This document shows positions 2,796-47,213 of a stretch of 64,000 nt of DNA, piece by piece. The DNA is from an uncultured Gemmatimonadaceae bacterium (GTDB lineage Bacteria > Gemmatimonadota > Gemmatimonadetes > Gemmatimonadales > GWC2-71-9): the NCBI GenBank assembly GCA_964348295.1, contig CAYGBV010000013.1, positions 5,993-69,992 on the forward strand, in the 5' to 3' direction. The notes beneath the pieces are model-generated. The model was not told the DNA's origin, ran no database searches, and was given only the letters and a program-made list of their open reading frames with translations. Position numbers and translations under genes: made by a program. Within the stretch, counting starts at the first letter, position 1; the number at the start of each line of letters is the position of its first letter.

Positions 2796-3988
2796 GCAGC
2801 TCGCTCCACGCTGAGTGCAACCGCGTTCCCGCCGCCCAGACACAGCGTCGCGAGCCCCGTGCTCGCGCCGCGGTCCCGCATCGCGTACAGCAGGGTCGTG
2901 AGGATGCGCGCTCCGCTGGCCCCGATGGGGTGCCCGAGCGCGACCGCCCCGCCGTTGACGTTCACGCGGTCCCAATCCCAACCCAGTCCGCGCCCGTCGG
3001 CGATGGCCTGCACGGCAAACGCCTCATTGGCCTCGATCAGGTCGTACGACCCGATGTCGGTCTTGGTCTTCTGCATCAGGTTCTGCACCGCCTTGATCGG
3101 CGCGAAGAACAGTTCCTTCGGCGGCCCGCCGCCCGCCGCGTAGCCGGTGACGCGGGCGATCACCTCGAGCCCGTGGGCCTCGGCGAAGGCCTGTGACGTC
3201 ACCACCAGCGCGCTGGCACCATCGTTCAGGCCCGGAGCGTTCCCGGCCGTGACGGATCCGTCCTTCTGGAACGCGGGCTTGAGCTTGCTGAGCGCCTCGA
3301 GCGAGGTCTCCTTGCGCGGGCCCTCATCGGTGTCTACCACCGTGACCTTGCCCTTGCGTCCCGCGATCTCCACCGGGACGATCTCCGCCGCGAACTTGCC
3401 GCTCTCCTGCGCGGCCACGGCCTTCCGGTGGCTATTGAAGGCGTACTCGTCCTGCTCCTCCCGCGTCACGCCCGCCTTCTCGGCCGTATACTCGGCGTAG
3501 CTGCCCATCACGTTGTCGCCGAAGGAGCACCACAGGCCGTCGTACTGCACGGCGTCCACCATCTGCTGGTTCCCGTACTTCACGCCACCGCGCATGCCGT
3601 ACACGTAGTGCGGCGCGGTGGACATGGATTCCTGACCACCCGCCAGGACGCACTGTGCATCGCCGGCCCGAATCGCCTGAGACGCCAGCATCACGGCCTT
3701 GAGGCCGGAGCCGCACACCTTGTTCACGGTCAGCGCGGGCACCTCGTCGGGTACTCCTCCGTGGATGGCCGCCTGACGGGCCGGGGCCTGGCCGGAGCCA
3801 CCCTGGACCACGTGCCCCATGATGATCTCGTCGATGGCGCTCCCATCGATCCCTGCACGGCTCATCGCCTCGCGCACCGCGATCGCGCCCAGCCGCGGAG
3901 CCGGGAGCGAGGCCAGGCCACCGAGGTAGCGGCCCACCGGCGTCCGCACGGCGCTGACGATGACCGGAGTCGTGTCTTTCTTAGCCAC
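2792..3988 (-). CDS. Acetyl-CoA C-acetyltransferase (thiolase)
   Basis: NKVCGSGLKA (catalytic Cys), NEAFA, GGAVALGHPIGASG, LCLGGG. Confidence 0.95.
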   Translation of the reverse strand: MAKKDTTPVIVSAVRTPVGRYLGGLASLPAPRLGAIAVREAMSRAGIDGSAIDEIIMGHVVQGGSGQAPARQAAIHGGVPDEVPALTVNKVCGSGLKAVMLASQAIRAGDAQCVLAGGQESMSTAPHYVYGMRGGVKYGNQQMVDAVQYDGLWCSFGDNVMGSYAEYTAEKAGVTREEQDEYAFNSHRKAVAAQESGKFAAEIVPVEIAGRKGKVTVVDTDEGPRKETSLEALSKLKPAFQKDGSVTAGNAPGLNDGASALVVTSQAFAEAHGLEVIARVTGYAAGGGPPKELFFAPIKAVQNLMQKTKTDIGSYDLIEANEAFAVQAIADGRGLGWDWDRVNVNGGAVALGHPIGASGARILTTLLYAMRDRGASTGLATLCLGGGNAVALSVERAA

Positions 3989-4117
3989 GGTTCGATCCTC
4001 CCATCTCTCCCGCCAATCCCGACGCTCGATCTAACTGTTTCGAGGCGTAACTATTTAATCGCTTGCAGTTTAACGGGGGGTACAGGGGGCCTCAACCTCA
4101 CTCCACCACCACCCTTC

Positions 4118-32171: not shown

Positions 32172-32960
32172 GTGCCCGATAACGATACCCCGGACCGCAG
32201 GCAGGGCGATCGCCGCCGCGGGAGCGAGCAGCGCGCGGGAGGGTCGCGGCGCTCCGGCCACGACCGGCGCGCCAAGGAGCCTCCGAGCCCCGAGGCGTCC
32301 ACCCGCAGCGGCAAGGAGCGCAGAACCCGCGTGCGGCGCGCCGGTCGGCGGCGACGGCGCTGGGACCGGCGCGTCGGGGAGCACCACGACAACCCTGCGG
32401 TCTACTCGCGGGACGAGATCACACGCATCCGCAAGTTGCTGGTGAGCACTCGCGTGCCGTTCACCTGCCCCCGATGCGACGGCGCGTTACACCAGGGCGA
32501 CCCCATCATCGGCAACGGGTGCACCCTGCGGCCCGTGCGCTGTGAGGCCTGCCATCGCAGTACCACCATACCGGACTACGTTGTCGTGCGCGCACTGGTG
32601 GTTGACGACGACGAGCCGGTCCGTGAGGGTCTGGCGACCATCCTGAGGGGAGCCGGCCATGAGGCGGTGGCCACGGCAGACGGGAGCGCGGGCGTTCGCG
32701 CCTGCGGGACGGACTCGCCCGACGTTGTCTTCGTGGACATCGCGTCGGTGCGAGCCGAGGTGGAAGTCATCGCGCAGGCCCGCAAGGCGTTCCCCGATGT
32801 CAAGGTGATCGCCGTGGGAGGCCGGCAGCGCCGCGGAGCCGGTGATCCGCTGGCCATCGCGGGCACGCTGGGCGTGCAGGCAACACTGCGGCGGCCATTC
32901 ACGCCGCACGACGTGCTGCGGGCGGTGGATGTGGCGCTCGGCCTGGTACGGGCCGATTAG
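32172..32960 (+). CDS. Atypical response regulator: Arg-rich N-terminus, zinc ribbon, receiver domain
   Basis: DRR repeats; CPRC...CEAC; [10 protein letters not shown]...DVVFVDI...LRRPF. Confidence 0.65.
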
Positions 32961-34699
32961 CGTTGCCTGCGGGCCTCGGCCGCTTCCCGTGCGGCGACCT
33001 TAGCCCACGTATCCCTGAGCGTCACCGTCCGGTTGAACACCGGGGCGCCGGGCTGCGAGTCCTCGTCTGCGATGAAGTAGCCCTGCCGCTCGAACTGGTA
33101 GCGGGTGCCGGGCGGGTCATCCGCCACGCTGGGCTCGATGCGGCTCTCGTTCAGCACGACGAGTGACTCGGGGTTGAGGTAGTCGGTGAACTGCGTCCCC
33201 TCCTCCACATCGTCCGGGTTCGCGGTGACGAAGAGGCGGTCGTATAGCCGCACCTCGCAGGGGAGCGAATGCGCGGCCGAGACCCAGTGGATGGTGCCCT
33301 TCACCTTGCGGCCGTCGGGGGTGCCGCTCTTGGTCTCGGGGTCGTAACTGCAGTGCAGCTCGGTGATCTCGCCCGTCTTGGGGTCCTTGATGACCTCCTC
33401 GCACTTGACGATGTACCCATAGCGCAGCCGCACCTCGCGTCCCGGCGCGAGACGGAAGAACTGCTTGGGCGGGTCCTCCATGAAGTCGTCCCGCTCGATA
33501 TAGATCTCGCGTGAGAACGGGAGCGGGCGGGAGCCCTCCCTGGGGATGTCCCTGGGATAGTACGGGGCGTCCAGCTGCTCGACCTGCCCCTCGGGATAGT
33601 TGGTGATCACCACCTTTAGCGGCCGCAGCACGCACAACACCCGGGGGACCTTGGGGTTGAGGTCGTCGCGAATCGCCCACTCGAGCTTCTCGATGTCCAC
33701 CCGGCTGTCGGTCTTGGCCACGCCCACTAGATCGCAGAACTTACGGATCGCATCCGGCGTCACGCCGCGGCGCCTGAGTCCGGCGATGGCCGGCATGCGG
33801 GGATCGTCCCAGCCGCCCACGTACCCCTCCTCCACCAGCCGGATCAGCCGGCGCTTGCTGAGCACCGTGTAGTCCAGGTTGAGCCGGGCGAACTCGGTTT
33901 GCGCGGTGCGCGGCCGCTCGATCCCGACCGCGTCCAGCACCCACTCGTACAGCTCGTTGTTGTCCTTGAACTCCAGCGTACAGAGCGAGTGCGTGATGTC
34001 CTCGATCGCGTCGGAGAGGCAGTGCGTGTAGTCGTACAGCGGGTAGAGGCACCACTCGTCACCGCGGCGGTAGTGGCTGGCGTGCCGGATGCGGTACAGC
34101 ACGGGGTCGCGCATCAGCATGTTGGGATGCGCCATGTCGATCTTGCCCCGCAGCACGTGCTCCCCGTCTGCGAACTCCCCGGCCTTCATGCGGCGGAACA
34201 GGTCGAGGTTCTCTTCGGGGGAGCGGTCGCGGTAGGGGCTGGGCTTGCCCGGCTCGGTCACCGTGCCGCGGTACTGCCTGATCTCCTCCTCGGACAGGCT
34301 GTCCACGTAGGCGAGGCCCTTCTCGATCAGCAGCTCGGCCCACTCATACAGCTGCTCGAAGTAGTCCGAGGCGTGGTACATGCGGTCGTCCCAATCGTAT
34401 CCCAGCCACGCGACGTCCCGCTTGATGGCCTCGACGTACTTCATGTCCTCCGTTTCGGGGTTGGTGTCGTCGAACCGGAGGTTGCAGGTGCCGCCGTGCT
34501 CCAGCGCCAACCCGAAGTTGAGGCAGCACGACTTGGCGTGTCCGATGTGGAGATAGCCGTTCGGCTCGGGCGGAAACCGGGTCGCGACCCGGCCGCCGTA
34601 TTTGCCCGTGCGCCCGTCCTCCTCGACCATCGACCGAATGAAGTCGAGGCCGGGCTTGCGGAGGCCTTCGCTCTTCTCGGGTGCTCGCTCTTCTGGCAC
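32957..34699 (-). CDS. glnS: Glutamine--tRNA ligase (no YqeY tail)
   Basis: [63 protein letters not shown]. Confidence 0.95.
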
Positions 34700-34822
34700 A
34701 TGGCCTCCTTACCCCGCATCGGCCGCGACATCGCGGAACCGGCCCGCACGGTCCTTTAATCTGTCGCGGAAGTTAGCCTCCGGGGCAAGGCCTGCGTGGC
34801 TAACGGCGGCCAGTGCTATGCA

Positions 34823-37800
34823 TCAGGCCTGCCGCACGCCATAGAAGGCCGCATACAGCGTCGGCACGACCACCATCGTGAGCAACGTCGCGACGCCCAG
34901 GCCGAACATGATCGTGACCGCCATCGAGACGAAGAACGCGTCCGGTACCAGCGGCAGCATGCCGAGGATCGTGGTAGCCGCCGCCATCCCCACCGGCCGG
35001 AGTCGGCTCACCGCTGCCTGCAGGATCGCGCTGAAGTCGGACTGGTCGGTGCCGCGCTGCACGTTGATCTCGTCGATCAACACGATCGCGTTCTTGATGA
35101 GCATCCCGGAGAGGCTCATGAAGCCGAGCAACGCCATGAACCCGAACGGCTGGGCGGTGACGAGTAGACCCAACGTGACGCCGATGAGTGCGAGGGGCAC
35201 CACGAGCCAGATGACGGCGGTCTGCTTCAGCGAGTTGAACAGGGCGACGGTGATCAGCACCATCAGCAGCACGAAGACGGGGAACGACGCGGCCAGGGAC
35301 GCCTGCGCCCTGCGACTATTCCGGTACTCGCCCCACCACTCCAGCGTGTAGCCCTCGGGCAGCTCGATCGCCTCGACCGCCGGTCGCACCTTGGCGAGCA
35401 TAGGGGGCGCCTCGCCCACCCGTGGGTCGGCCAGCACCGTGATCGCGCGCTTGCGGTTCATGCGAATGACGATCTCGTCCTCGAAGGTGGTCTCGAAGTC
35501 CGACACGACCTGGCGCAGCGGGATCGCTCGACCGGCGGCGGGGCTGTAGATCTGGATGTTGCCGATGCTGCTGACGTCGGCGCGCTCCGCCTCCGGGGCG
35601 CGCGCTATGATCGGCAGCAGCTCGTCGCGCTCCCGGTACACGCCAAACGACGCGCCCTCGAAGCCCGCGAGCAGCGCCGTGGCGATATCGGTGCGGGTGA
35701 TGCCCGCGAGGTTGGCCTGCTCCTCTGCGACGACCGGACGCACGACCTTGACCCGCTCGCGCCAGTCGGTCCGTACCCCGTAGAGATTGGGCTCCGCCCG
35801 GAATATCGCCTCCGCCTGCGCGGCGAGGCCGCGGAGCACGTCCGGATCCGGCCCGAAGAACCGCGCCTGGATCTTGCCGGGATCACCGGGGCCCAGAATG
35901 AACTTCCGCGTCTGCACCATGGCTCCCGGGTACGCCTCCTCGAGATGCTCCTGAAACTGCAGCATCATCCGGTCGATGAGGCGGTAGTCGTCCACGTCCA
36001 CCAGGAACTGCGCGTACGCAGGGTTCTCCTTCTCCGGTGTGTAGGTCAGGAGGAAGCGCATCGCACCGTTCCCGACAACGGCGGAGACTGTCGTGACGCC
36101 CTCCTGGTCCATGATCCACTGCTCGATCTCGGCCACGTCGCGCTCGGTGCTTCCGATCTGGCTCCCCTGCGGCAGCCAGTAGTCAATCATGAACTGCGGC
36201 CGCGTGGAGTTCGGGAAGAAACTCTGCTCGACCCTGCCGAACCCGACCAGCGCGATGACGAATACGCCCACCACCACGGCCATCGTGATTGCCCGGCGTC
36301 GAATGGCGCCGCCCAGCAGACCGCGGAACTTCGTGTAGAACGCGCCGCCGTACGGGTCGGAGGCCGCCTCCCCCGGCTTCGGCAGCTTCGGCTTGAGCAC
36401 CATGATCCCGAGGAGCGGTGTCACGGTCACGGCGGTCACCCAGCTCAGCAGCAGCGAGATCAGGATCACGGTGTACAGCGAGCGCGTGTACTCGCCGGTG
36501 GCGTCCTGCGACGTACCGATCGCCGCGAACGCGAGAATCGCGATCACCGTTGCGCCCAGGAGCGGCCAGGCAGTCTGCTGCACGGTTTCGACCGCCGCCC
36601 GGACCTTCTCGACTCCCTGCTGCATCTTCACCAGCATCCCGTCCACAACCACGATGGCGTTGTCCACCAGCATGCCCAGGGCGATGATCAGCGCGCCGAG
36701 GGAGATGCGCTCCAGCACCACTCCCATGCGCGGCATGATGATGAACGAGCCCGCAATGGTGAGGAACAGGATGAACCCGATCAGCAGGCCGGATCTAAGG
36801 CCCATGAACAAGAGGAGCACCACCACAACGATGGCGACGGCCTGCAGCAGGCTGACCAGAAAGCCGTTGATGGCCGTGGTCACCGCCGCCGACTGGAGGG
36901 AGATGATGCCGACCTGCATCCCCAACGGGATCTGGGGCAGAAGCTCCCGGAATCGGGCGGCAACTCCCTCGCCCATGGTGACCACGTTGCCGTCGGGCAC
37001 GGTGGAGATGCCGAGGCCGACGGCCGAGCTCCCGTTGTACCGGATCAACTGCTTGGGCGGGTCCCGGTAACCCCGGCGGATGGCGGCGATGTCCCGCAGG
37101 TAGATCTGCGCGCCACCGGGCTGGCCAGCAATCAGCAACGATCCGAAGTCGTCAACGGAGTCGAACAGCCCTGTCGGGTCGATGGTGATGAAGTCGGGAC
37201 CCACTTCGACGTGGCCCGCGTACGCGGCGAGGTTCCTGGAGCGCAATCCCTCGGCGACCGCTGCCGTGGAGATGCCGAGCTGCGACATCCGGTCCCGATC
37301 CAGCTCGACGTAGACGACCTCAGGCTGCACGCCGAAGAAATCGATCTTCGCAACGTCCTGTACGAGCAGCAGCTCCCGCCGCAGCAGCTTGGCCACATCA
37401 TACAGCTCGGCGTAGCTGTACCCCTCTCCGTACAGCGCGAGGAACACCCCGTAGACGTCACCGAAGTCGTCGTTGACGATGGAAGGTCCGGCACCAGGCG
37501 GCAGATCACGCTGGGCATCGTTCACCTTGCGCCTGAGCTCGTCCCATACCTGCGGGAGCGTCTCTTTGTCGTACCGGTCCTTGATCGTGGCGGTGACGAT
37601 CGACAGCCCGCGCGTGGACCGCGACTCGACCTCGAGGAGCTGCTTGAGCTTCTGCACCGCGATCTCGATTACGTCGGAGACTTCTTCCTCGACCTCCGTC
37701 GCGGAAGCACCCGGATAGGGAGTGATGATCAGGGCGTCCTTGATCGTGAACTCCGGGTCCTCGAGCCGGCCCATGCCGGTGTACGAGATGATCCCGCCGA

Positions 37801-37867
37801 CGACCAGAACGACAGTGAGAACGAGCGTGGTAACCCGGTTCTCGATGCAGAATTGGGTGATCTTCAT
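34823..37867 (-). CDS. RND efflux transporter permease (AcrB/D/F family)
   Basis: 1014 aa, two TM blocks, LGMLVDNAIVV, IKNAIVLID, SRLRPVGM. Confidence 0.95.
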   Translation of the reverse strand: MKITQFCIENRVTTLVLTVVLVVGGIISYTGMGRLEDPEFTIKDALIITPYPGASATEVEEEVSDVIEIAVQKLKQLLEVESRSTRGLSIVTATIKDRYDKETLPQVWDELRRKVNDAQRDLPPGAGPSIVNDDFGDVYGVFLALYGEGYSYAELYDVAKLLRRELLLVQDVAKIDFFGVQPEVVYVELDRDRMSQLGISTAAVAEGLRSRNLAAYAGHVEVGPDFITIDPTGLFDSVDDFGSLLIAGQPGGAQIYLRDIAAIRRGYRDPPKQLIRYNGSSAVGLGISTVPDGNVVTMGEGVAARFRELLPQIPLGMQVGIISLQSAAVTTAINGFLVSLLQAVAIVVVVLLLFMGLRSGLLIGFILFLTIAGSFIIMPRMGVVLERISLGALIIALGMLVDNAIVVVDGMLVKMQQGVEKVRAAVETVQQTAWPLLGATVIAILAFAAIGTSQDATGEYTRSLYTVILISLLLSWVTAVTVTPLLGIMVLKPKLPKPGEAASDPYGGAFYTKFRGLLGGAIRRRAITMAVVVGVFVIALVGFGRVEQSFFPNSTRPQFMIDYWLPQGSQIGSTERDVAEIEQWIMDQEGVTTVSAVVGNGAMRFLLTYTPEKENPAYAQFLVDVDDYRLIDRMMLQFQEHLEEAYPGAMVQTRKFILGPGDPGKIQARFFGPDPDVLRGLAAQAEAIFRAEPNLYGVRTDWRERVKVVRPVVAEEQANLAGITRTDIATALLAGFEGASFGVYRERDELLPIIARAPEAERADVSSIGNIQIYSPAAGRAIPLRQVVSDFETTFEDEIVIRMNRKRAITVLADPRVGEAPPMLAKVRPAVEAIELPEGYTLEWWGEYRNSRRAQASLAASFPVFVLLMVLITVALFNSLKQTAVIWLVVPLALIGVTLGLLVTAQPFGFMALLGFMSLSGMLIKNAIVLIDEINVQRGTDQSDFSAILQAAVSRLRPVGMAAATTILGMLPLVPDAFFVSMAVTIMFGLGVATLLTMVVVPTLYAAFYGVRQA

Positions 37868-37870
37868 GGG

Positions 37871-38974
37871 CTACGACCTGCCCTCTGGGCCCTCGAGCCG
37901 CCGCACCGGATCGCCTTCCCGCAGGTTCGCCACGCCGGTCACGGCGACCAGATCGCCGTCGGCGAGGCCTCGCACCACCTCGACCTCGGCGCCGAACATC
38001 GCACCGATCTCGACCGGGGCGCGGGAAACCGTCATGGCCACCGGATCCACCTTCCACACGGACGTCTGCCCGTCGTCCGCCGCGAACACGGCGTTCGCCG
38101 GCAGGCGCTGTACGGTCGTTCCCGGCTGACCCAAGCGGCGCACGATCATGCGCGCCGTCATGCCCGGGACCAAAGCAATGTCGCTGGGCGGCTCGAAGCG
38201 GAACGTCACCTCGAAGGTGCGCGTCACCGGGTCGGCCTGTGTCGCGACCTCCGTGAGCCAGGCGGGGAACCGTCGGTCGGGAAACGTGGATACGGTACCT
38301 TCTGCATCTATCCTCAGAGGAGTGCGCGTCGATTCCACCGCCTGCCGGGCCACCAAAGCGTCGCCCTCCGGCACGGCGATCACTATCTCCAGATTGCGAT
38401 CGTCGTTGAGCAGCAGCACCGTCTCCTTGGCCTGCACGTTCTGGAAGGCATCCACGAAGGTGCGCGCCACACGGCCGGCGAACGGTGCCACGAGCCGGGT
38501 ATCATCGACCGCCTTCTGCGACGTGCGCAACCGCGCCTCCGCCACTTCGAACTGCGCCTGCCTGAGCTGGAGCTCCTGCAGCGTTACGGCGTCGGCGGCG
38601 TACAGCTCCTGATAGCGCCGATAGTCCGCACGGGCCGCTTCGAGGCTGGCGGCGTCCGCATCGCGTTGCGCCTCGTAGTTGCGCGCATCGAGCCGCGCTA
38701 GCAGCTGGCCCCGTCTCACCCATTGTCCCTGCACGACCGGCATCGCGACGATGAGTCCGGGGACCTCGAAGGCCAGCTCGGCCCGCTCCGCCGCTTCGAC
38801 CGTCCCCGGGTATTCCCGTACGCCGGAGACACCGCCGAAGCCGATTTCGATCATCTTGACCGGACGGGCGACCGCCTGCTCCGGCGGCGGCTCACCGCCG
38901 CAGCCGGGAACGAACGCGCCGAACGTGGCGAGGAGCACAAGCGTGCGCAACCTCGAGCAGCGTTTCAAATCCAT
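37871..38974 (-). CDS. RND periplasmic adaptor (MFP), lipoprotein
   Basis: Lipobox VPGC, hairpin helices, LVAPFAGRV, DPVTRTFEV. Confidence 0.92.
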   Translation of the reverse strand: MDLKRCSRLRTLVLLATFGAFVPGCGGEPPPEQAVARPVKMIEIGFGGVSGVREYPGTVEAAERAELAFEVPGLIVAMPVVQGQWVRRGQLLARLDARNYEAQRDADAASLEAARADYRRYQELYAADAVTLQELQLRQAQFEVAEARLRTSQKAVDDTRLVAPFAGRVARTFVDAFQNVQAKETVLLLNDDRNLEIVIAVPEGDALVARQAVESTRTPLRIDAEGTVSTFPDRRFPAWLTEVATQADPVTRTFEVTFRFEPPSDIALVPGMTARMIVRRLGQPGTTVQRLPANAVFAADDGQTSVWKVDPVAMTVSRAPVEIGAMFGAEVEVVRGLADGDLVAVTGVANLREGDPVRRLEGPEGRS

Positions 38975-39010
38975 GGCTTCAATCCGTGGTCCTGTAGTCT
39001 GTGCACTGTG

Positions 39011-41431
39011 CTACTCCATGCCGCGCTCGCGCAGGTAGTCTCCCAGGCGCTGAATGAACGCCTCGCGCGAGGCCTCGTCGAGAAACAGGTCGATCTGGCC
39101 GGCCGCCCGCTGCACGGCCATGAAGTCAGTGATGAAATCGTACAGCGTATTGGCCGCGTCGAGCTCGGCAACGAGCGCCGTGTTCTGGGCGTCGAGCAGG
39201 CTGAGGATGCCGGTTACGCCCCCCGCGTAGGCAGTCCGCACGAGCTCGTAGTTACCCTGTGCTGCGGTAGCGGCCTCCCGCGCCAACTCCAGGCGCACCC
39301 GGGACGACAGCAGGCGCTGCAGCTCGTCGCGCATCGCCTCCTCAACCCGCTGCGCCTGCGAGGTGCGCTGATACTCGAGGCTGAACAGGCTCTGTTGGGC
39401 CCGCTCCTTTGCCGCGGTGCGCGAGCCGCTACCGAACAGCAAGTAGCGGGCACTCAGCGAAATCGACCAGCGCCAGGGGTCGGCCTCCCCTTCAGGCACC
39501 AGGCCGGGAGGCAGACCACCGCCCGAGAAGTCCGAGCCGGCGCCCCCCTCCAGCAACCGGTTCGAGAGACGCGCATCGAGAAAGAACTCAGGCAGCCAGA
39601 AGGACCGGTTGGCGGCCGTCACCGCGCGCTCCTGGCCCCCGATCAGCGCATCAAGCGCCCGCAGCTCCGGCGACGTTACCAGCGCTTCGGCAATCATGAA
39701 GTCCTGGAAGCCGTCGAAGCGCTGCGGGTCGTCCAGCAGCCGCGTCAGGGCGTCCTCCGCCCAGCGGATCACCGGATCTTCGAGCTCATCCTCGGGGGTG
39801 GCGACATCCTCGCCGAGTGCTCGGTGCAGCAGGCGGTTGAGCCGTATCTCGGCAACTGCCCGCGCGGCCGCCGCGCCGACCACCCCCTGGCGGTCCTTGG
39901 AGACCTGCGCCTGCCAGCGCAGCACCTCCCCCGGAGTCGCCGCTCCCGTCTGCCGCCGCACATCGGCCAGGTCCAGGTTCGTGCGCGTGAACGCGAGGTT
40001 CTCCCGCCGGATCTGCTCGGTCGTCTTGCGGCGTAGCACGGTCAGATAGGCGTCGGCCGCCTCGAATGACACGTCGAGCCGCAGCGACGCGTAGTCCTCC
40101 TCCCGCGCACGCTGCAGCGACTGCTGAATAGTCCGATCCGCCCACGCGCGGTCGGCATACACGACCTGCGAAAGCCCCACCGAGCCCAGCAGCTGCCTCT
40201 GGGGCAGGACCCCGAGGCTGCGGGCCGCCCGGTCTTCGTCGATGATCGTGCCCGAGAATGCCAGATCGAGCTGCGGCAGGAGGCGTGACGTCGCGGTCTT
40301 CACGTCCTGCGCGGCCGCCTGCACAGCGCGCTCGAACGACGCGAGATCCTGATTCTGCGCCAGCGCCTCCCGCACGATCGAGTCGAGCGACTGCGGCTCG
40401 GGTTGCACCCCGGGCCGCTCCTCGATGAGTCGCGCGTCGCTCAGCATTGTCCACGACGGATACACCCCGATGGCGCGCGCGGTCTGCATATTGACGATCA
40501 AGCGCTCCTGCGGCACGAACGTCACGCGCAACTGCCCCGGTGCATCGCCCCGGAGGATCTGTTCTACGGTGAGCGCCGTCAGCCGAGCGAGCTGGAACGT
40601 GAAGGAGTCCGGGCGCCGCGCCAGCAGGATGCCCTGGCGAACCTCGGCCTCCCCGAACCAGGAGAGGCTCGGCAGCCCGAGCTCAATCAGTCCATCTGCC
40701 AGCTGCTCGAACGCCGCGCTCGAGACCCGCGACAGTGGCAGCACGTACACTGCGTCCGCCCCAGCGACCTCGATTGCGTCGAGCGCGAGTTGAACATCGT
40801 CGCCCACCGGAACGACCACCGCCTCGGCTCCGGCTTGCGCCACCAGCTGCTCGACGCGGCTGTCCAGGGCCGGCATCTCGGCGACCGCAGATGCACTCAC
40901 GAGCACGGCGAGGCGCTGAAAGGCGACCACCTCGGCCAGCGTGGCGAGATCCCGGTTCTCGGGTCGCGTGAGGTACACGAAGTTGGACACCCCGGAGGCA
41001 GCGCCCTGTCGGGGGATGTCCTGTAGCGAGGGGTCGAGCACGAAGGGGGCGACGACCGGCTTGGCGAGTCGCGGATGGTCGGCAGCCACCTGTGCACCCA
41101 TGGTACCGACGACCACTACCACGTCCACCCGATCCATGAGCTGATCGAGCGCCGCACGGATGCCGGCCTGCGTATGATCGCCGGCCAACCTCACATCCCC
41201 CCCGATGCGCACCTCGAACCGGTTCTCGAGAAGCACCGCCGTCTCCCGCTCGATCTGGTCCAACAGCTCGCCGAAGCGGAGAAACGGGCCGTCGGTCAGG
41301 ATGCCGATCGTCACCGGTGTCCGCTCTTGGGCGGCGGCCGTCGGGGCGACCGAGCCAATCCCGAGTGCAGCCAGCACCGCAAGCAGGAGACGGGTAGCCA
41401 ACGGATGTTCAGCGGACAGGCGAACTCCCAT
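39011..41431 (-). CDS. TolC-family outer membrane protein fused to an N-terminal ABC substrate-binding-like domain
   Basis: Signal peptide; about 330 aa periplasmic-binding-like region ending LIVNMQTARAIGV; OEP repeats (ALAQNQDL, SRLLPQLDL, SFWLPEF, YAGGVTGILSLLDAQ). Start 41431 or 41461, not 42325. Confidence 0.8.
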   Translation of the reverse strand: MGVRLSAEHPLATRLLLAVLAALGIGSVAPTAAAQERTPVTIGILTDGPFLRFGELLDQIERETAVLLENRFEVRIGGDVRLAGDHTQAGIRAALDQLMDRVDVVVVVGTMGAQVAADHPRLAKPVVAPFVLDPSLQDIPRQGAASGVSNFVYLTRPENRDLATLAEVVAFQRLAVLVSASAVAEMPALDSRVEQLVAQAGAEAVVVPVGDDVQLALDAIEVAGADAVYVLPLSRVSSAAFEQLADGLIELGLPSLSWFGEAEVRQGILLARRPDSFTFQLARLTALTVEQILRGDAPGQLRVTFVPQERLIVNMQTARAIGVYPSWTMLSDARLIEERPGVQPEPQSLDSIVREALAQNQDLASFERAVQAAAQDVKTATSRLLPQLDLAFSGTIIDEDRAARSLGVLPQRQLLGSVGLSQVVYADRAWADRTIQQSLQRAREEDYASLRLDVSFEAADAYLTVLRRKTTEQIRRENLAFTRTNLDLADVRRQTGAATPGEVLRWQAQVSKDRQGVVGAAAARAVAEIRLNRLLHRALGEDVATPEDELEDPVIRWAEDALTRLLDDPQRFDGFQDFMIAEALVTSPELRALDALIGGQERAVTAANRSFWLPEFFLDARLSNRLLEGGAGSDFSGGGLPPGLVPEGEADPWRWSISLSARYLLFGSGSRTAAKERAQQSLFSLEYQRTSQAQRVEEAMRDELQRLLSSRVRLELAREAATAAQGNYELVRTAYAGGVTGILSLLDAQNTALVAELDAANTLYDFITDFMAVQRAAGQIDLFLDEASREAFIQRLGDYLRERGME

Positions 41432-41677
41432 GAGGCCTCTGGGTAAGTGTCCGTTACTCATACGGCTTCTGTCATTTGGGCTGAAGTACGGCCCGTGACG
41501 GCGAAGAGCTATACCCTCTTGGTGGTATGCGGGAGCGAAGGGGGCAGCATACACCGGGCGGACCCGTCTCGTCAACGCGCCGCGATTCGAGATCGGCATC
41601 AGTGGCGCCGCGGCGCAGGTAGACAAACGGCGCGCATCCGTCGATCTTTGGGCGGCAAACTGCAAAGGAGCCTCGGC

Positions 41678-42250
41678 ATGTATTCCGTTCGCGTTCCAGT
41701 TCTGGCGGCCGTCGCCGTCATCACGCTCACGACCACCGCGCTGGCACAGGAGGCCAAGTTCGTTGGCATCTCCGGCGGAGCTACGCTGGGCGACCTCAAT
41801 GGCGGCGTGACCAACACCGACAACCGCTGGGGCGGTACCGCCGGGGTGTTCTTCGGCTACCGCAGGTGGTACACGATCGGCGTGCTCGAGGCCAACTGGG
41901 TACAGAAGGGTGGCGGGGACACCCGCATCGACTACATCGAGGTTCCGTTCCTCGTTGGCGGCGGGACCACGACGGACGCCGGGATCCTGTTCCGGCTCTA
42001 CACGGGGCTGGGAATCGCCTTCCCCATCGGCTGTAACTCCACCTCGACCTCCGAGCTCCAGAACTGCGACCTGAAGAAGAGCCCCGAGTGGGCGTGGCCC
42101 ATCGGCCTGCTCGTCGGGCGCGAAATCGGCGGCCCTCGCTTCGCGGCCATCGACGCGCGCTACTCGATCGGCATCTCGGACGCGTTCGATAACGCGATAT
42201 CCTCGAATCGCTCCTGGCAGTTCCGCCTGTACGTGGGTCAGCGACTCTGA
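41678..42250 (+). CDS. Small outer membrane beta-barrel protein
   Basis: Signal peptide (ALA-QE), alternating Gly/aromatic strands, DARYSIG, C-terminal strand QFRLYVGQRL. Confidence 0.7.
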   Translation: MYSVRVPVLAAVAVITLTTTALAQEAKFVGISGGATLGDLNGGVTNTDNRWGGTAGVFFGYRRWYTIGVLEANWVQKGGGDTRIDYIEVPFLVGGGTTTDAGILFRLYTGLGIAFPIGCNSTSTSELQNCDLKKSPEWAWPIGLLVGREIGGPRFAAIDARYSIGISDAFDNAISSNRSWQFRLYVGQRL

Positions 42251-42282
42251 TCCGGCGCCGCGCAGCGGGCGCGCCAACCAGA

Positions 42283-42311
42283 AAGGGCGAGCGCACGGCG
42301 CGCTCGCCCTT
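42283..42311. terminator. Hairpin between convergent genes, likely bidirectional terminator
   Basis: AAGGGCGAGCGC-ACGGC-GCGCTCGCCCTT, perfect 12-bp stem. Confidence 0.7.
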
Positions 42312-42337
42312 GGCACATCCGGCACCGCGGTGGGCCG

Positions 42338-43738
42338 CTAGCCTCTCAGCCCGGCCACGAACTTGTCGAGCAGCGTGCTGGGGAACGTCCCGCCCGACTC
42401 GAGTATGTCGCGATACCGCGTGAGCGCGTCGGCCACCTCGTAGAAGTCGCGCGGCACCCGCTCGGCGCGCCCTCCCTTCCCTTGCCTCGCCTGCTCGGCC
42501 GAGGTGCGCTGCAGCAGGTCCTCCAACTCCTCGGTGTCGCGGCCCTTGATCATCGCCAGCGCCGCGCCGGCCAGGAGCAGGTGGGGCAGCGCCGAGCCGT
42601 CGGGCAACCGGAACTCCACGGTGGCGGGCGTTACCACCCGACCGGTCCCGTCGGTGGCCACCACCGGCAGGCGAATCAGTGCCTGGCGGTCGTAGTCGCC
42701 CCACACGATGGTGCTGGGTGCCTCCTTGGCCTGGCGGATACGGACGAAGGAGCCCTCTACCCGGTTGCCGAACGCCATGAGGGCACCACCCATCTGCACC
42801 AGCCCACCGATGAGCCACCGGGCGCCATCGGTAAGCGTGCCGTCCTCGTGCTTGACGGGCAGCACCTCGCCGTCCTTGACGGGCGCCAGGTGGAAGTGGA
42901 GTCCGTTCCCAGCGTGGCCCTCGAGCATCATCGGGCCCGTGGCGCAGCGCATGCCCTTCCGGTGCGCCAGGTTCCGCAGCACCCATTGGGTGAGCAGAAT
43001 CCCGTCGGCGGCTTCGGGCAGCGGCGCCAGGGAGAGCTCGATCTCGTGCTGCTCCCAGATGACGCCTCCCGCCTCGCTCGCCTCGATGTAGCCCACCTCG
43101 CTGTGTCCGTACTTGACCGGCACCGCGAGGTCTGCCAGCAGCGCGAGCGCCTTGCGCCGCAACCCTTCTCCGAACACGAATGGGGAGCTGGCGTGGTAGC
43201 CCCGGTCGTCGGCGCCGTAGATGTCCGACTCGTCGCGTCGCTTGCCGAGGAAGTACTCGACCTCACCGAGGGCCCAGAGCTCGACGCCCGCGGTCTCCTT
43301 GAGCTGCCGCACGGCGCGGCGCAGGATCGTGTCGGGCGAGGCCGCCAACGGCTTTCCGTCCCGGTCCGCGTGCCCGCACATCAGCACCAGCGTCGGGAGC
43401 GACGCGAACGGATCGAGGAACGCGGTCCCCACGCGGGGCCGCAGCACGATGTCGGACCGGTCGGGCGGAATCCCGGCGCGCGGGAACAGGCTCGAGCCGT
43501 CGGCCCGCTCGCCGCCCTCGATGATGTCCTCGAGCTGCTGCGCGCTGCGCGGCACGAAATCCAGCGTCTTGAGCCAGCCGTCGCCGCCCACGTGCATCAG
43601 GCTCACGACTTGAATGCCGCGGGCCCGCACCAGCTCCACCAGATCGGCCGCGGTCCACGCGGCGCGTGGCTTGTCCAGCTCGTCCTCCAGGCTCATTCCC
43701 CGCGGCACTGGCGTGCGCGGCCGTGTTTCTTCACTCAT
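42338..43738 (-). CDS. Glutamine synthetase-family protein (Bacteroidota-like GS I variant)
   Basis: DGSSLF, GEVEYF, HSEVG, QHEIE, GNGLHFH, EAP, DRQALIRLP, VEFRLPD; ATG 43738 overlaps gatD stop. Confidence 0.88.
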   Translation of the reverse strand: MSEETRPRTPVPRGMSLEDELDKPRAAWTAADLVELVRARGIQVVSLMHVGGDGWLKTLDFVPRSAQQLEDIIEGGERADGSSLFPRAGIPPDRSDIVLRPRVGTAFLDPFASLPTLVLMCGHADRDGKPLAASPDTILRRAVRQLKETAGVELWALGEVEYFLGKRRDESDIYGADDRGYHASSPFVFGEGLRRKALALLADLAVPVKYGHSEVGYIEASEAGGVIWEQHEIELSLAPLPEAADGILLTQWVLRNLAHRKGMRCATGPMMLEGHAGNGLHFHLAPVKDGEVLPVKHEDGTLTDGARWLIGGLVQMGGALMAFGNRVEGSFVRIRQAKEAPSTIVWGDYDRQALIRLPVVATDGTGRVVTPATVEFRLPDGSALPHLLLAGAALAMIKGRDTEELEDLLQRTSAEQARQGKGGRAERVPRDFYEVADALTRYRDILESGGTFPSTLLDKFVAGLRG

Positions 43739-45129
43739 CGCCACACCTTCTCCAGGAACTCCTGAATCTCCGGCACCCCACCCTGGAACACCAGGTACCC
43801 GTCGTGCGGCTCGCGTGCCGTGGTCTCGCCGGCGACGGGCGTCATCATGAGCTGCTTCACCGCCTCCGGATCGTCGGGGTGTGCCCCCAGCGCCCACCCC
43901 AGCTTAACGAACGCCACCTCGGGCAGCATGTTGGCGAGCGGGATGACGCCGAGCTCCAGGATCTCGCGCCCCGTCTCGTACACCTGCATCTGCACGAAGC
44001 CCCACAGGGTCTGGAGCGTCATGTACATGTGCACGCCGGCGGCGTGCGCCCGCCCCAGCGCCGGATAGATAGTACGATTGACGTGCCCCAGGCCCGTGCC
44101 CGCGATCACAATTCCCTTGTAGCCCTTCTCCACCAACGCATCCACTACGTCGGCGTGCATGCCCGGGTAGTAGTACAGCATCGTGACCCGCTCGTCGTAC
44201 ACCGCCTGGACCGTGACGTCGCAGTCGTTGCGGCGCCGCTGCCAGTCGTCCTTGAGCGGGGTGATCGTGCCCTTCTCCACCATGGCGAGGGGAACGTCCC
44301 CCAGCGTGCGGAACGTGCTGCGGTAGGAGCTGTGCATCTTGCGCACCCGCGTGCCGCGGTGCAGCAGGTTGTAGCGGTCCGAGGTGGGGCCGAACATGCA
44401 CACCATCACCTCGGCGATCGGCCCGCGCGCCGCCGTCCACGTGGCATTGATGAGGTTCTGCGCCGCGTCGGACGACGGCCGGTCGGAGGAGCGCTGCGAG
44501 CCCACCATGACGACGGGCACCGGCGGCCGCTGCACCATGAACGACAGCGCCGCCGCCGTGTGGTGCATCGTGTCGGTGCCGTGGCCGATCACCACGCCGT
44601 CCCAGCCGTCGCGAATCGCCTCGCCCACTTTCTCGGCGAGGATGAGATACTGCTCGGGCCCCATGTTCTCGCTGAACACGCCGAACAGCTTCTCCGTCTC
44701 GAGGTTGCAGATGTCGGCCAGCTCGGGCACCGAGCCGTAGAGCTCCCCGGGGCTGAACGCCGGGATCACCGCGCCCGTGCGGTAGTCGAGCCGCGACGCG
44801 ATGGTGCCGCCCGTGCCGAACAGCTTCACGCGCGGCTTCACCGGATCGGTGGGGAACTCCTTCTCGGGGATCTTGTAGCGCGCCTCGCGGTAGCCGGTCT
44901 CTTCCATCACGAGGATGGTGTCGAACCTGAGCCCCACGTTGTAGCCGCTCCCCAGCTTGAGCACCAGGTGCGCGTCGTCGCTGGTCTCCGAGCGCGGCAG
45001 GATCAGCCCCTCGAAGTCGCCGCGGGTGGTGCGGGCCTTCACCTCGCTCCACACCTTCACTCCGAACCGCTTCATCACCTCGAGGGTGGGTCCGCGGTAT
45101 CCCTTGTATTGGTCCTTGCCGCCGCTCAT
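43735..45129 (-). CDS. gatD: Glu-tRNA(Gln) amidotransferase subunit D (archaeal-type, asparaginase fold)
   Basis: GatD-specific N-domain (YKGYRG...EGLILPRSETSDDAHLVLKLGSGYNVG), TGGTIASRLDYRTGAV, SENM, HGTDTMH, GSQRSSDRPSSDA, HRGTRVRKMHSS, AFVKLGWALG. Confidence 0.92.
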   Translation of the reverse strand: MSGGKDQYKGYRGPTLEVMKRFGVKVWSEVKARTTRGDFEGLILPRSETSDDAHLVLKLGSGYNVGLRFDTILVMEETGYREARYKIPEKEFPTDPVKPRVKLFGTGGTIASRLDYRTGAVIPAFSPGELYGSVPELADICNLETEKLFGVFSENMGPEQYLILAEKVGEAIRDGWDGVVIGHGTDTMHHTAAALSFMVQRPPVPVVMVGSQRSSDRPSSDAAQNLINATWTAARGPIAEVMVCMFGPTSDRYNLLHRGTRVRKMHSSYRSTFRTLGDVPLAMVEKGTITPLKDDWQRRRNDCDVTVQAVYDERVTMLYYYPGMHADVVDALVEKGYKGIVIAGTGLGHVNRTIYPALGRAHAAGVHMYMTLQTLWGFVQMQVYETGREILELGVIPLANMLPEVAFVKLGWALGAHPDDPEAVKQLMMTPVAGETTAREPHDGYLVFQGGVPEIQEFLEKVWR

Positions 45130-47213
45130 GCCACCGTCTCCGGCACGGCGTCCTCGAGCGCCTGTGTCAGCCGCCGCCGTACGTCGGTCGGGTCGAGCCG
45201 GCCCAGGAACCCGGGCATGACCGCACCCATCGCCCAGCGCAGCACACCGTCGCGTGACGCGGTCGTGAGCGACTGTGCCTCGACCACCACGTCGGTCAGG
45301 CGGCGCGTGAGCTCGTCCGCGTCGTGGGCACGGCCCCGGTAGCGCGCCAGCAGCTCGTGTGCCGCGACCTCGGGTCGCTCGATGAGCGCATCCAGCATGC
45401 GGTCCAGCGCTTCTACCCGGATCTCACCCTTCTCGATGGCAAGCACCATGGGCGCGAGGCGCTCGGGCGCGGGCAGCGCCGCCGCATCCCGCGTGAGCCG
45501 CCCCTGCCGGCGGTGGTGCGGCAGCCGCTTCTGGAACGCGTTGGCGAGCCGGCGCGCCACGTCACCGGCCGCGGGCGCGAGCGCGTCGAACAGATCGGCC
45601 CACTCCGCCCGGGCGAGTCGCCGCGCCATTCGGAGTTCTAGCCCCAGCTTCTCGTAGCGCGCCTCACGCGCCCATGGCGTCTCGGCGATCTGCTCGCGCA
45701 CCTCGGCCACCAGCGCGTCGGCAATGGGCAAGGGCGGCGTGTCGGTATCGGGGTACATGCGGTCCGGCCCCGGCAAAATGCGCTCGAACCCGTTGGTACC
45801 GTCGTCGAACGCCTGGCGCGTCTCCGAGGGCACGCCGACCAGGGCGTCCTGGCACCGGATCAGCACCTCGCGCGCCGCGGTGGCCGCGTCCTCTTCCGTG
45901 CCCCACACGACGACGATCGCGTCACCCGTCTCGGCCTTGAGCTGCTTGCGCAACTCGCGCCACTCGCGCGGGTCGAGCCCGTAGTCCTTGATGTCGGAGT
46001 GGATCATGAACGGGCGGTGCTCCGGACACGCGATCACGCGCACCCGGTCGGCGATCTCGCGGGCGAAGGTCACGCCGGGCTGGGTGCGGTGATTGAGCAA
46101 ACCATCGAAGCCGGGGAGCCGCACCGCAGCGATCGTCTCCCCCCGCTCCAGCGCGTCGCGCATCGGTTGAAAGTCGGAGTGAGCGAGCGCGGTGCCAGCG
46201 TCCACCACCTGGTCGCTCACCTCCCACGGCAGCCCACCCTCCGGAGTGGTGAGCATGTCGTCCCCCACCTCGCGCCGCACCAGCTCGGCCTTCACCCTGA
46301 GCAGGTTGAGCTGGCGGAACGCCTCGGTGTGGACCAGGAGCGGCAAGTGCTTGTGGTTGTCCACCCCCTTGAGCTCCACTCGCCGCCCGCCCGCCACCGA
46401 GACGTTGGTGTCCTGCCGTGCCGCTCCCGGGCCGCGCCGCACCTTCCCCGTGGCCTGCGCGATGGCCGCCAGCAGGCGCCCTCCCGCACGGACCTCCCAG
46501 GGAGTCAGCAGGTCGGGCTCGGTGACCGTCTCGGTAAGCGGCATCCCCAGGCGGTCGGTCTTGAACGTGATGCGGTGGCCGATGTCGGTCACCTCACGGC
46601 AGGAGTCCTCCTCCAGCGAGAGCTGCCGGATCCTGAGCTCCCGGTCCACGCCTAGCTCCGGCACCCGGAACGGCACCGTGCCCGTGAGCCCCACCATGGC
46701 CGTGCGCTGGAAGCCCGTGGGGATCGAGCCGTCCAGGTACTGCTTGCGCATCACGTGTAGCTCGGACACCAGGTTCAGATTGCAGAGCTGCGCGATCTCA
46801 ACCGCGATCCGCACCGCCTCTTCGTCGAGCTCGAACGGCGGCGTGTCGTCCATCTCGTAGGTGCAGACCGTGCCGCGCTCCAGCCGGTACACGATCTCCT
46901 TCTTGGTCTTGAACTCCATGAGCGCGGTGCCGTCGTACTCGCCCAACTCGCTCAAGGTGGGGCGCATGTGGCGCAGTACCTCGGCGTCGTACACGGTCAC
47001 CCGCCGGCCCGCCGGACAGCGGCAGAACAGCTTGGACGTGGTGCGGAGCTGCTGGTGGACCTCGACGCCGGACATGAATCCCACGGCGTCGTAATCGCCG
47101 GGCGTCATGTCGGCCAGGTCCTTGTCGCGGAAGTCCAGCGCCGGCTCCCGGCGGGGGTTCAGATCCGCCGGGGGGCGCGGGCCGGACTGGTTGGCGTTGT
47201 CGTCGTCGCTCAT
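45126..47213 (-). CDS. gatE: Glu-tRNA(Gln) amidotransferase subunit E (archaeal-type)
   Basis: GVEVHQQL..KLFC, RPTLSELGEYD, MRK...DGS..TGFQRT, LEED, DRLGMPL.E, KVRRG.G..RQD.NVS..GG.RVELKGV, AspRS-like insertion, GVPSETR, LPGPDRMYPDTDTPP, tail WAMGAVM; start trimmed to ATG 47213. Confidence 0.92.
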   Translation of the reverse strand: MSDDDNANQSGPRPPADLNPRREPALDFRDKDLADMTPGDYDAVGFMSGVEVHQQLRTTSKLFCRCPAGRRVTVYDAEVLRHMRPTLSELGEYDGTALMEFKTKKEIVYRLERGTVCTYEMDDTPPFELDEEAVRIAVEIAQLCNLNLVSELHVMRKQYLDGSIPTGFQRTAMVGLTGTVPFRVPELGVDRELRIRQLSLEEDSCREVTDIGHRITFKTDRLGMPLTETVTEPDLLTPWEVRAGGRLLAAIAQATGKVRRGPGAARQDTNVSVAGGRRVELKGVDNHKHLPLLVHTEAFRQLNLLRVKAELVRREVGDDMLTTPEGGLPWEVSDQVVDAGTALAHSDFQPMRDALERGETIAAVRLPGFDGLLNHRTQPGVTFAREIADRVRVIACPEHRPFMIHSDIKDYGLDPREWRELRKQLKAETGDAIVVVWGTEEDAATAAREVLIRCQDALVGVPSETRQAFDDGTNGFERILPGPDRMYPDTDTPPLPIADALVAEVREQIAETPWAREARYEKLGLELRMARRLARAEWADLFDALAPAAGDVARRLANAFQKRLPHHRRQGRLTRDAAALPAPERLAPMVLAIEKGEIRVEALDRMLDALIERPEVAAHELLARYRGRAHDADELTRRLTDVVVEAQSLTTASRDGVLRWAMGAVMPGFLGRLDPTDVRRRLTQALEDAVPETVA

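Follow-up and report, generated by a model that had tools for sequence, protein, structure and literature searches.

Genes for GatDE and GlnRS at the Locus

We analysed a stretch of 64,000 nucleotides (the window) from an uncultured, soil-type Gemmatimonadaceae bacterium, positions 5,993 to 69,992 of contig CAYGBV010000013.1, which encodes both subunits of a GatDE-type amidotransferase together with a glutaminyl-tRNA synthetase (GlnRS). As shown in Table 1, the genes between 32957 and 47273 form a single run on the minus strand. The gatE and gatD genes and a third gene of the glutamine synthetase family (the GS-like gene) are located about 9 kb upstream of glnS on the same strand. ATGA overlaps join gatE to gatD and gatD to the GS-like gene, so the three genes form a translationally coupled operon. 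The glnS gene begins with GTG, has its own AAGGAGG ribosome-binding site and lies 124 nt past the gene of an efflux pump. The G+C content was 64–72% throughout the DNA, and no compositional break was found at either the gatDE or the glnS locus.

The ratio of nonsynonymous to synonymous substitutions (dN/dS), estimated within the genus of the window organism, was 0.10–0.12 for gatD, 0.18–0.19 for gatE (C-terminal two thirds only), 0.13–0.20 for the GS-like gene, and 0.12–0.15 for glnS. All four genes are intact and under purifying selection, and neither route to Gln-tRNA(Gln) is decaying. A preliminary description of this DNA had reported an uninterrupted glnS with its core motifs, GatDE coexisting with a full GlnRS about 9 kb away, and two apparently redundant routes to Gln-tRNA(Gln) in one genome. 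The first point was borne out by the TIGR00440 score, the motifs and the specificity residues of GlnRS given below, the second by both loci passing curated cut-offs, and the third by the intact state of both gene sets and the selection acting on them.

Table 1. Features of the locus and related features elsewhere. Positions refer to the window unless a contig (C) or another locus (L) is named.
Feature	Position	Strand	Basis or details
glnS, GlnRS, 580 aa	32957..34699	-	TIGR00440, class Ic Pfam domains
RND inner-membrane pump, AcrB family	34823..37867	-	Pfam ACR_tran, E 4e-153
RND membrane-fusion protein, HlyD family	37871..38974	-	Pfam HlyD_D23 and HlyD_3
Outer-membrane efflux protein, OEP/TolC-like, about 816 aa from the likely start	39011..41461	-	Pfam OEP, residues 877-1065 of the long open frame
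G+C-rich hairpin, 12-bp stem, AAGGGCGAGCGC-GCCGT-GCGCTCGCCCTT, then TCTGGTT	42283..42311	-	sequence inspection
GS-like gene, glutamine synthetase family, 466 aa	42338..43738	-	Pfam Gln-synt_C and Gln-synt_N
gatD, asparaginase-type amidase subunit	43735..45129	-	TIGR02153; Pfam GatD_N, Asparaginase, Asparaginase_C
gatE, tRNA-dependent kinase/amidotransferase subunit	45126..47213 (longest open frame to 47273)	-	NF003107; Pfam GatB_N, GAD insertion, GatB_Yqey tail
tRNA-Gln genes, outside the window	C19:33300-33370 and C30:8750-8823		
GlnRS with C-terminal YqeY-type extension	L212-L219, L223-L227, L028:4864-7368, L035:5551-7938		

Identity and Catalytic Residues of GatD, GatE and GlnRS

GatD scored 483 bits against TIGR02153 (cut-off 324) and 476 bits against NF003217 (cut-off 310), and it matched the archaeal structures 2D6F_A (383 bits) and 1ZQ1_A (382 bits) over its full length. 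Alignment to 2D6F and 1ZQ1 showed that the catalytic residues were kept, with the threonine nucleophile in TGGT, the HGTDT motif and the lysine of VRKMH making up the Thr-Asp-Lys triad. GatE scored 479 bits against NF003107 (cut-off 456) and 415 bits against TIGR00134 (cut-off 320), with matches to 1ZQ1_C (302 bits) and 2D6F_C (290 bits). Its Mg2+ ligands H73, the glutamate of LEED and the glutamate of PLTE correspond to H15, E157 and E184 of the Methanothermobacter thermautotrophicus enzyme, which is inactivated by mutation of these three ligands (PMC2330236). By score and by chemistry both subunits are members of the GatDE family, and three features of context and recognition found in the studied enzymes are missing.

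GlnRS scored 739 bits against TIGR00440 (cut-off 426) and contained three class Ic Pfam domains (tRNA-synt_1c and both C-terminal domains) as well as the HIGH and LSKR motifs. It scored 950 bits against the model of the Deinococcus-type GlnRS/YqeY fusion, yet it is the short form that lacks the YqeY tail. In an alignment to 1O0B, the residues R30, Y211, S227, C229, F233, Q255 and D235, which give the E. coli enzyme its specificity for glutamine, were conserved, and L136 was replaced by valine. An origin of Glu-tRNA(Gln) from GlnRS itself was unsupported, all glutamate-rejecting residues of E. coli GlnRS being conserved.

Many other Gemmatimonadota encode a GlnRS with a C-terminal extension of 210–240 aa that ends in GLLGFFxGQVMRxTRGKADP, that is, a GatB/YqeY tail as in Deinococcus GlnRS. 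The extension was found in all eight amidotransferase-free genomes examined of families f7 and f8, in the gatDE carriers G185, G234, G045 and G051, and in some GatB-bearing genomes. We considered whether the short GlnRS depends on a tail supplied in trans by GatE or GatB. This was ruled out by genomes with a short GlnRS and no amidotransferase at all (G019, G168 and G086), and it is also contradicted by the occurrence of GlnRS-YqeY fusions both with and without GatDE or GatCAB.

Inventory of the Genome and Its Genus

The assembly is bacterial (3.4 Mb in 74 contigs, 92% complete, with a bacterial transfer-messenger RNA), and the nearest relatives of its GatD are labelled Gemmatimonadales or Gemmatimonadota. 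It encodes one glutamyl-tRNA synthetase (GluRS; C19:6856-8160, 435 aa, outside the window), no GluQRS, an asparaginyl-tRNA synthetase (AsnRS) split over two contig ends, one bacterial-type aspartyl-tRNA synthetase (AspRS), tRNA-Gln(UUG), tRNA-Gln(CUG), tRNA-Asn and two tRNA-Glu. None of the 11 genomes belonging to the genus (that of the window and 10 others) gave a GatB match above the cut-off, and the only matches there were GatE. Nearly all other genera of the family and order have GatB, matched at E values of about 1e-150. The preliminary description had proposed an inventory of such genes as a check, and the counts are a single GluRS, no GatB, AsnRS and both tRNA-Gln species in the window genome. 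GatD was present in seven of the 11 genomes; the four without it were 73–84% complete, and two of these contained GatE fragments. In G009, a member of the genus, gatD is split over two frames (L211:3112-3696 and 3732-4484) by a frameshift or an assembly error, with gatE and the GS-like gene looking intact.

AsnRS is universal in the order and is uninformative on a role in asparagine supply. The only AsnB-family gene of the genus (C20:48489-50330, outside the window) scored 388 bits against TIGR01536 (cut-off 267) and failed the AsnB equivalog (256 versus 499 bits); its best model was an exosortase-type amidotransferase, also below the cut-off. Its product may not be the housekeeping asparagine synthetase. 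The gene adjoins that of a large multi-pass membrane protein, which resembles an ArnT-type glycosyltransferase by eye only.

The best PDB matches of the window GluRS included discriminating and non-discriminating kinds at equal scores. The Arg358 marker for GluRS discrimination is unreliable. Compared with the E. coli-type enzyme (PDB 8I9I), the protein is missing about 40 residues, which in that enzyme contain the zinc-binding/SWIM insertion close to the acceptor arm of the tRNA. Several gatDE carriers from Gemmatimonadota, Aminicenantes and Fibrobacteres also have this short type, and it is the type encoded by the gltX genes that diverge from gatE at four loci (for example L018:3897-5177 and L020:6370-7662). 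As a marker of GatDE carriers it was ruled out, since the long type predominates among carriers that lack GatB.

Co-Occurrence of GatDE with GlnRS Across Bacteria

When one genome of each prokaryote species was scanned, GatD proteins 67–86% identical to that of the window were found to be encoded at more than 593 bacterial loci. The carriers belonged to Gemmatimonadota, Eisenbacteria, Acidobacteriota, Planctomycetota, Myxococcota, Krumholzibacteriota, Zixibacteria, Ignavibacteria, Fibrobacteres, Aminicenantes, Calditrichota, Fermentibacteria and other groups. Among 50 carriers picked for spread over about 20 phylum-level groups, GlnRS above the cut-off was found in 47, AsnRS in 49, GluRS in 47 (about 12 with two full-length copies) and GatB in 24. 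GlnRS was missing from three carriers; two of them (G066 and G077) also had no detectable GluRS and are incomplete, and GatB was present in G061 and G066.

Gemmatimonadota were sampled separately with 201 evenly drawn genomes (glnS at E ≤ 1e-100 and gatB at E ≤ 1e-60). GatD was rare in this sample, being found in 12 genomes from 8 of the 98 genera, while GlnRS was found in 87 genomes and GatB in 154. GlnRS was present in 10 of the 12 carriers and in 77 of the 189 non-carriers (41%; Fisher p = 0.005); counted by genus, it was present in all 8 carrier genera and in 46 of 90 others (p = 0.008). The preliminary description had held that its reading would fall if most bacterial gatDE carriers lacked glnS. 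The opposite was found in both samples, with glnS in 47 of 50 carriers overall and in 10 of 12 within the phylum. The coexistence of GatDE and GlnRS is general among bacterial carriers and not peculiar to the window genome.

The two exceptions in the phylum sample, G217 and G243 (L209 and L210, genus g42), showed neither glnS nor gatB at the scan thresholds, and their congeners G178 and G181 have glnS. Neither GlnRS nor GatB was detected in 13 of the 189 non-carriers either, a biologically impossible state from which a false-negative rate of about 7% follows. G217 and G243 are accordingly no evidence for a bacterium that relies on GatDE only, and the missing genes are probably due to incompleteness or thresholds. 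Were the absence true, these two could make Gln-tRNA(Gln) through GatDE only. A general requirement for an amidotransferase beside GlnRS was ruled out, because 26 of the 87 GlnRS-bearing Gemmatimonadota have neither GatB nor GatD.

One genome of family f3 in the same order (G024, L003; the family also includes G022) encodes GatDE, GatCAB and GlnRS together. In the GatD tree its protein is long-branched and belongs to the other half, and its GlnRS groups with that of a different class of the phylum. These placements point to independent acquisitions inside a single order.

Linkage of gatDE to glnS and gltX and History of the Cluster

To survey gene linkage, 80 bacterial gatDE loci were compared, and the check for aspS and asnS covered 88 loci. 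The pair gatE–gatD was the sole universally conserved unit in the 80 loci. The glnS gene was located directly 3′ of gatD in L018, L020, L021, L038, L074 and G131 (L206), and directly 5′ of gatE in L028 and L035, one a deltaproteobacterial and one a Planctomycetota locus. It thus abutted gatD or gatE in 7 of the 80 loci, plus G131. In the congeners G003, G006, G007 and G009 the distance between glnS and gatD was 8.5–9.3 kb. A 10-kb neighbourhood in a 3.4-Mb genome is expected by chance in about 0.6% of cases, and the proximity of glnS and gatDE exceeds chance. Upstream of gatE, a divergent gltX was present in L018, L020, L021 and L038; its product is 65–79% identical, without gaps, to the only GluRS of the window genome and was called its ortholog. 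Neither aspS nor asnS was found near gatDE in any of the 88 loci.

Between gatD and glnS, the window contains the GS-like gene and an RND efflux operon. The RND block was absent from this position in L018, L020, L021, L038, L074 and L206. Since related Gemmatimonadales have glnS directly after gatD, the 9-kb gap is read as an insertion into an older cluster. The simplest reading of the gene orders is an ancestral Gemmatimonadales cluster with gltX divergent from gatE–gatD–glnS, into which the GS-like gene and the RND operon would have been inserted and from which gltX would have moved away. The preliminary description had also allowed for glnS being a recent or inactive addition. This did not hold, as glnS keeps the same position across the genus, has a low dN/dS and retains all specificity residues.

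A hairpin located 3′ of the GS-like stop codon (Table 1) is the probable terminator of the gatE–gatD–GS-like operon; a generic terminator scan did not list it because of its short T-run. Within the RND operon, the likely start of the OEP-like protein, with a signal peptide, lies at 41461, and the stop-to-stop frame extends to 42325. The OEP domain is preceded by a periplasmic N-terminal part of about 500 residues without a Pfam match.

A GlnRS tree was built from 117 sequences, with frames chosen by similarity. The GatDE label required 11 changes on this tree, compared with 39 when labels were shuffled. In the half of the tree with the class-level Gemmatimonadota, carriers branched below a well-supported clade of 21 non-carriers, which fits joint presence followed by later loss of gatDE. 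GlnRS of the window genus was sister to that of carriers G178 and G181 (support 95*). The GatD tree was divided into two well-supported halves, one of which contained all class-level Gemmatimonadota together with Eisenbacteria, Planctomycetota, Myxococcota and others. The GlnRS data did not significantly reject this split (approximately unbiased test, AU, p = 0.084), and the two trees differ in places. Both a common and a separate history of the two genes, and with the former a strict co-transfer across phyla, are compatible with these data. The amino-acid composition of hosts with high and low G+C content may shape the split of the GatD tree.

These trees bear on the explanation that gatDE arrived in one block with glnS (and gltX) and survives because it is linked and only slowly lost, with hardly any function today. 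The clustering of carriers on the GlnRS tree, their position below the non-carrier clade and the failure of the GlnRS data to reject the GatD split are all consistent with such a passenger, as are the split gatD of G009 and the frequency of GlnRS-only genomes in the phylum. Weighed against them are dN/dS values of 0.10–0.19, reported as low as or lower than those of glnS, the high identity of GatD across phyla with intact genes in hundreds of genomes, and the direct linkage to glnS in only about 10% of loci. We consider it very improbable that gatDE is carried along in this manner.

The GS-Like Gene and Other Partners of gatD

The GS-like protein scored 146 bits against TIGR00653, below the GlnA equivalog cut-off of 429, and only the catalytic and N-terminal Pfam domains matched. 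The metal- and ATP-binding motifs EVEYF, NGLHFH and EFRLPD were retained, as judged from a weak PDB match. A separate GlnA candidate, closer than the GS-like protein, is encoded on contig C5 of the genome. The GS-like gene was located 3′ of gatD across the genus (G003, G006, G007, G010 and G009; 78–88% identity), and outside it also in G181 (a different genus), G120 (a different family) and the Eisenbacteria locus L030 (63–72% identity). A gene of the glutamine synthetase family follows gatD in at least four lineages. Elsewhere the gene downstream of gatD varies and encodes a sodium:dicarboxylate symporter, a beta-lactamase-fold protein, an MFS transporter or a histidine kinase. In none of the loci was gatD followed by a gene for asparagine synthetase. 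In two Gemmatimonadaceae loci (L011:11393-12643 and L013:11384-12607), a sodium:dicarboxylate symporter gene of the Glu/Asp type starts 4 nt after gatD, in the place of the GS-like gene.

The variety of these partners can be read as a sign that GatDE works outside routine translation, on a tRNA-bound or other gamma-glutamyl substrate, for example in nitrogen sensing or in making another amide, with the third gene feeding GatDE. The partners are lineage-specific and tied to the handling of glutamate, glutamine and aspartate (the GS-like gene; in L011 and L013 the symporter), GatDE was never the sole route to any aminoacyl-tRNA in the sampled genomes, and its tRNA-recognition segments are remodelled, as described below. 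Yet the full GatDE architecture is kept, including the tRNA-binding GAD insertion, the YqeY-like tail and the catalytic residues, and beyond gatE–gatD no neighbouring gene is widespread enough to mark out a different pathway. Archaeal GatD is moreover inactive without Glu-tRNA(Gln) (PMC2330236). A function of this kind appears improbable to us.

Substrate Recognition by Bacterial GatDE

The GXXAXGX motif in the tail of GatE has been implicated in the discrimination of the archaeal enzyme against Asp-tRNA(Asn) (PMC2811023). This motif was absent from GatE of the window, which has RDGVLRW at the site, and from all of the approximately 60 bacterial GatE sequences aligned. Most bacterial sequences have a conserved R-W or D-W there; GMGAMG occupies the site in the enzymes of Pyrococcus abyssi and M. 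thermautotrophicus. A second difference follows the EIKGV strand, where both archaeal enzymes have an acidic segment (Q(E/D)LD) and the whole bacterial branch has a basic one (xxHR or RIPxIP).

Archaeal GatDE reads the A1-U72 pair and the D-loop of tRNA(Gln) (PMC2330236). Both tRNA-Gln genes of the window genome (UUG on C19 and CUG on C30) have U1-A72 and A73, so the archaeal A1-U72 feature is not present. The two isoacceptors differ at the third pair, which is G3-C70 in the UUG and C3-G70 in the CUG species. The tRNA(Asn) of the genome has U1-A72 as well. The tRNA-Gln of E. coli, the model substrate of GlnRS, has G73. The tRNA-Glu(CUC) gene (C53:4834-4907, outside the window) precedes tRNA-Glu(UUC) by 33 nt, and its first pair is a G1-U72 wobble in place of G1-C72.

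The preliminary description had stated that GatDE does not amidate Asp-tRNA(Asn). This stands for the archaeal enzyme, which is specific for Glu-tRNA(Gln) (PMC2811023), and it is not a given for the bacterial one, from which GXXAXGX is absent. The main alternative that we weighed is that bacterial GatDE amidates Asp-tRNA(Asn), alone or besides Glu-tRNA(Gln), and has taken over tRNA-dependent asparagine synthesis, the one task left to GatCAB in bacteria with GlnRS. Loss of the archaeal-type tail motif from all bacterial copies and the U1-A72 pair shared by tRNA(Gln) and tRNA(Asn) are in its favour. The genus has lost GatCAB, seven of eight GlnRS-bearing non-carrier relatives keep it, and the only AsnB-family gene of the genus is ambiguous and falls below the AsnB equivalog. 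There is also a precedent for an amidotransferase kept beside GlnRS and AsnRS (PMC4206432). If such a GatDE replaced GatCAB only where GlnRS covers glutamine, this would explain the tie of GatDE to GlnRS; the alternative, if true, would account for that tie, the loss of GatCAB in the genus and the remodelled recognition segments together. The genes found linked to gatDE, which are glnS, gltX and a relative of glutamine synthetase and in no case aspS or asnS, point the other way. So do the approximately 45% of carriers that retain GatB, in which GatDE would be redundant for asparagine, the presence of an AsnB-family gene in the genus and the specificity of the studied archaeal enzyme. On balance, we regard a takeover of asparagine synthesis as unlikely. 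The related proposal that GatDE, without the tail motif that excludes Asp-tRNA(Asn), has adapted to U1-A72 tRNAs and acts on Asp-tRNA(Asn) or on both substrates is likewise given a low likelihood.

Proposed Role of GatDE

The reading that we favour, and hold tentatively, is that GatDE is an accessory Glu-tRNA(Gln) amidotransferase that works beside GlnRS and here has its own supply of glutamine. Homology, the intact chemistry and the identity of the linked genes (glnS, gltX and a relative of glutamine synthetase) are the grounds for taking Glu-tRNA(Gln) as the substrate. The single GluRS would make Glu-tRNA(Gln), and GatDE would convert this product as a second or clean-up route. GatE would phosphorylate the glutamate already attached to tRNA(Gln), and GatD would free ammonia from glutamine or asparagine for use by GatE, giving Gln-tRNA(Gln). 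The GS-like protein may make glutamine from glutamate, ATP and ammonium at the enzyme, and this would let the route operate at levels of free glutamine that do not suffice for GlnRS. GatDE would be neither the main nor the only source of Gln-tRNA(Gln) in this organism but would run beside the canonical GlnRS, and in the genus it would take the place of GatCAB. In archaea with both amidotransferases, GatDE serves glutamine and GatCAB serves asparagine (PMC2330236).

Four roles had been offered in the preliminary description: repair of mischarged Glu-tRNA(Gln), a backup when free glutamine is low, service to an isoacceptor that GlnRS does not charge, and action on a non-canonical substrate. None of them was singled out, and an accessory amidotransferase as proposed here matches the repair and low-glutamine roles. 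The coupling of the GS-like gene to gatD favours a role under low glutamine with a private donor. The different third pairs of the CUG and UUG isoacceptors give a weak hint of an isoacceptor-specific role.

Several observations weigh against an accessory Glu-tRNA(Gln) amidotransferase. If GatDE and GluRS together formed a sufficient route, as they do in archaea, more carriers without GlnRS would be predicted than the three found among 50, two of which are clearly incomplete; the near-absence of such carriers is not explained by the proposed role itself. The 26 Gemmatimonadota with GlnRS and neither GatB nor GatD show that no amidotransferase is needed beside GlnRS in this phylum. Because tRNA(Gln) has U1-A72 and the GatE tail is remodelled, substrate recognition must differ from that of the studied enzymes. 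The sequencing runs that hold the locus were all of DNA, with no RNA run among them.

Comparison with Known Systems

GatDE has been described as restricted to archaea and as an archaeal signature protein (PMC2811023, PMC2330236), and our literature search found no paper on bacterial GatDE. The large and strongly conserved bacterial branch contradicts this description. GatDE is almost always accompanied by GlnRS and AsnRS in bacteria, and so the textbook logic, by which an amidotransferase is kept where a synthetase is missing, does not account for its presence. This may mean a condition-dependent second route to Gln-tRNA(Gln), the clearing of mischarged Glu-tRNA(Gln) after the loss of GatCAB, or a change of substrate. 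To the earlier picture the present analysis adds background frequencies, the genus-wide loss of GatCAB, a reconstruction of the locus, estimates of selection and the missing tail motif.

The archaeal enzymes of M. thermautotrophicus (PDB 2D6F, with tRNA-Gln) and P. abyssi (PDB 1ZQ1) are like GatDE of the window in having two adjacent genes, the same domain order and the same catalytic residues. In contrast, the host of the window is a bacterium with GlnRS and AsnRS, in which GatDE is not the sole route. Its tRNA(Gln) has U1-A72, its GatE lacks the tail motif and carries the basic segment, and a gene of the glutamine synthetase family is part of the operon.

Deinococcus radiodurans, Thermus thermophilus and Bdellovibrio bacteriovorus have GatCAB beside GlnRS and AsnRS (PMC4206432). 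They share with the window organism an amidotransferase that is present despite a full direct-charging set, and many relatives of the window organism match them with GatCAB. In these species, however, GatCAB makes asparagine through a non-discriminating AspRS, whereas the window genus has lost GatCAB and has in its place the GatDE type, which is linked to glnS and gltX.

Two glutamine transamidosome systems with a dedicated GluRS, namely GluRS2 with GatCAB in Helicobacter pylori and non-discriminating GluRS (ND-GluRS) with GatCAB in Thermotoga maritima (PDB 3AL0), resemble the bacterial gatDE loci in that a GluRS gene is paired with an amidotransferase, as seen in L018, L020, L021 and L038, where gltX is divergent from gatE. 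Unlike these two species, which lack GlnRS, the organism of the window encodes GlnRS and a single GluRS that must also serve tRNA(Glu).

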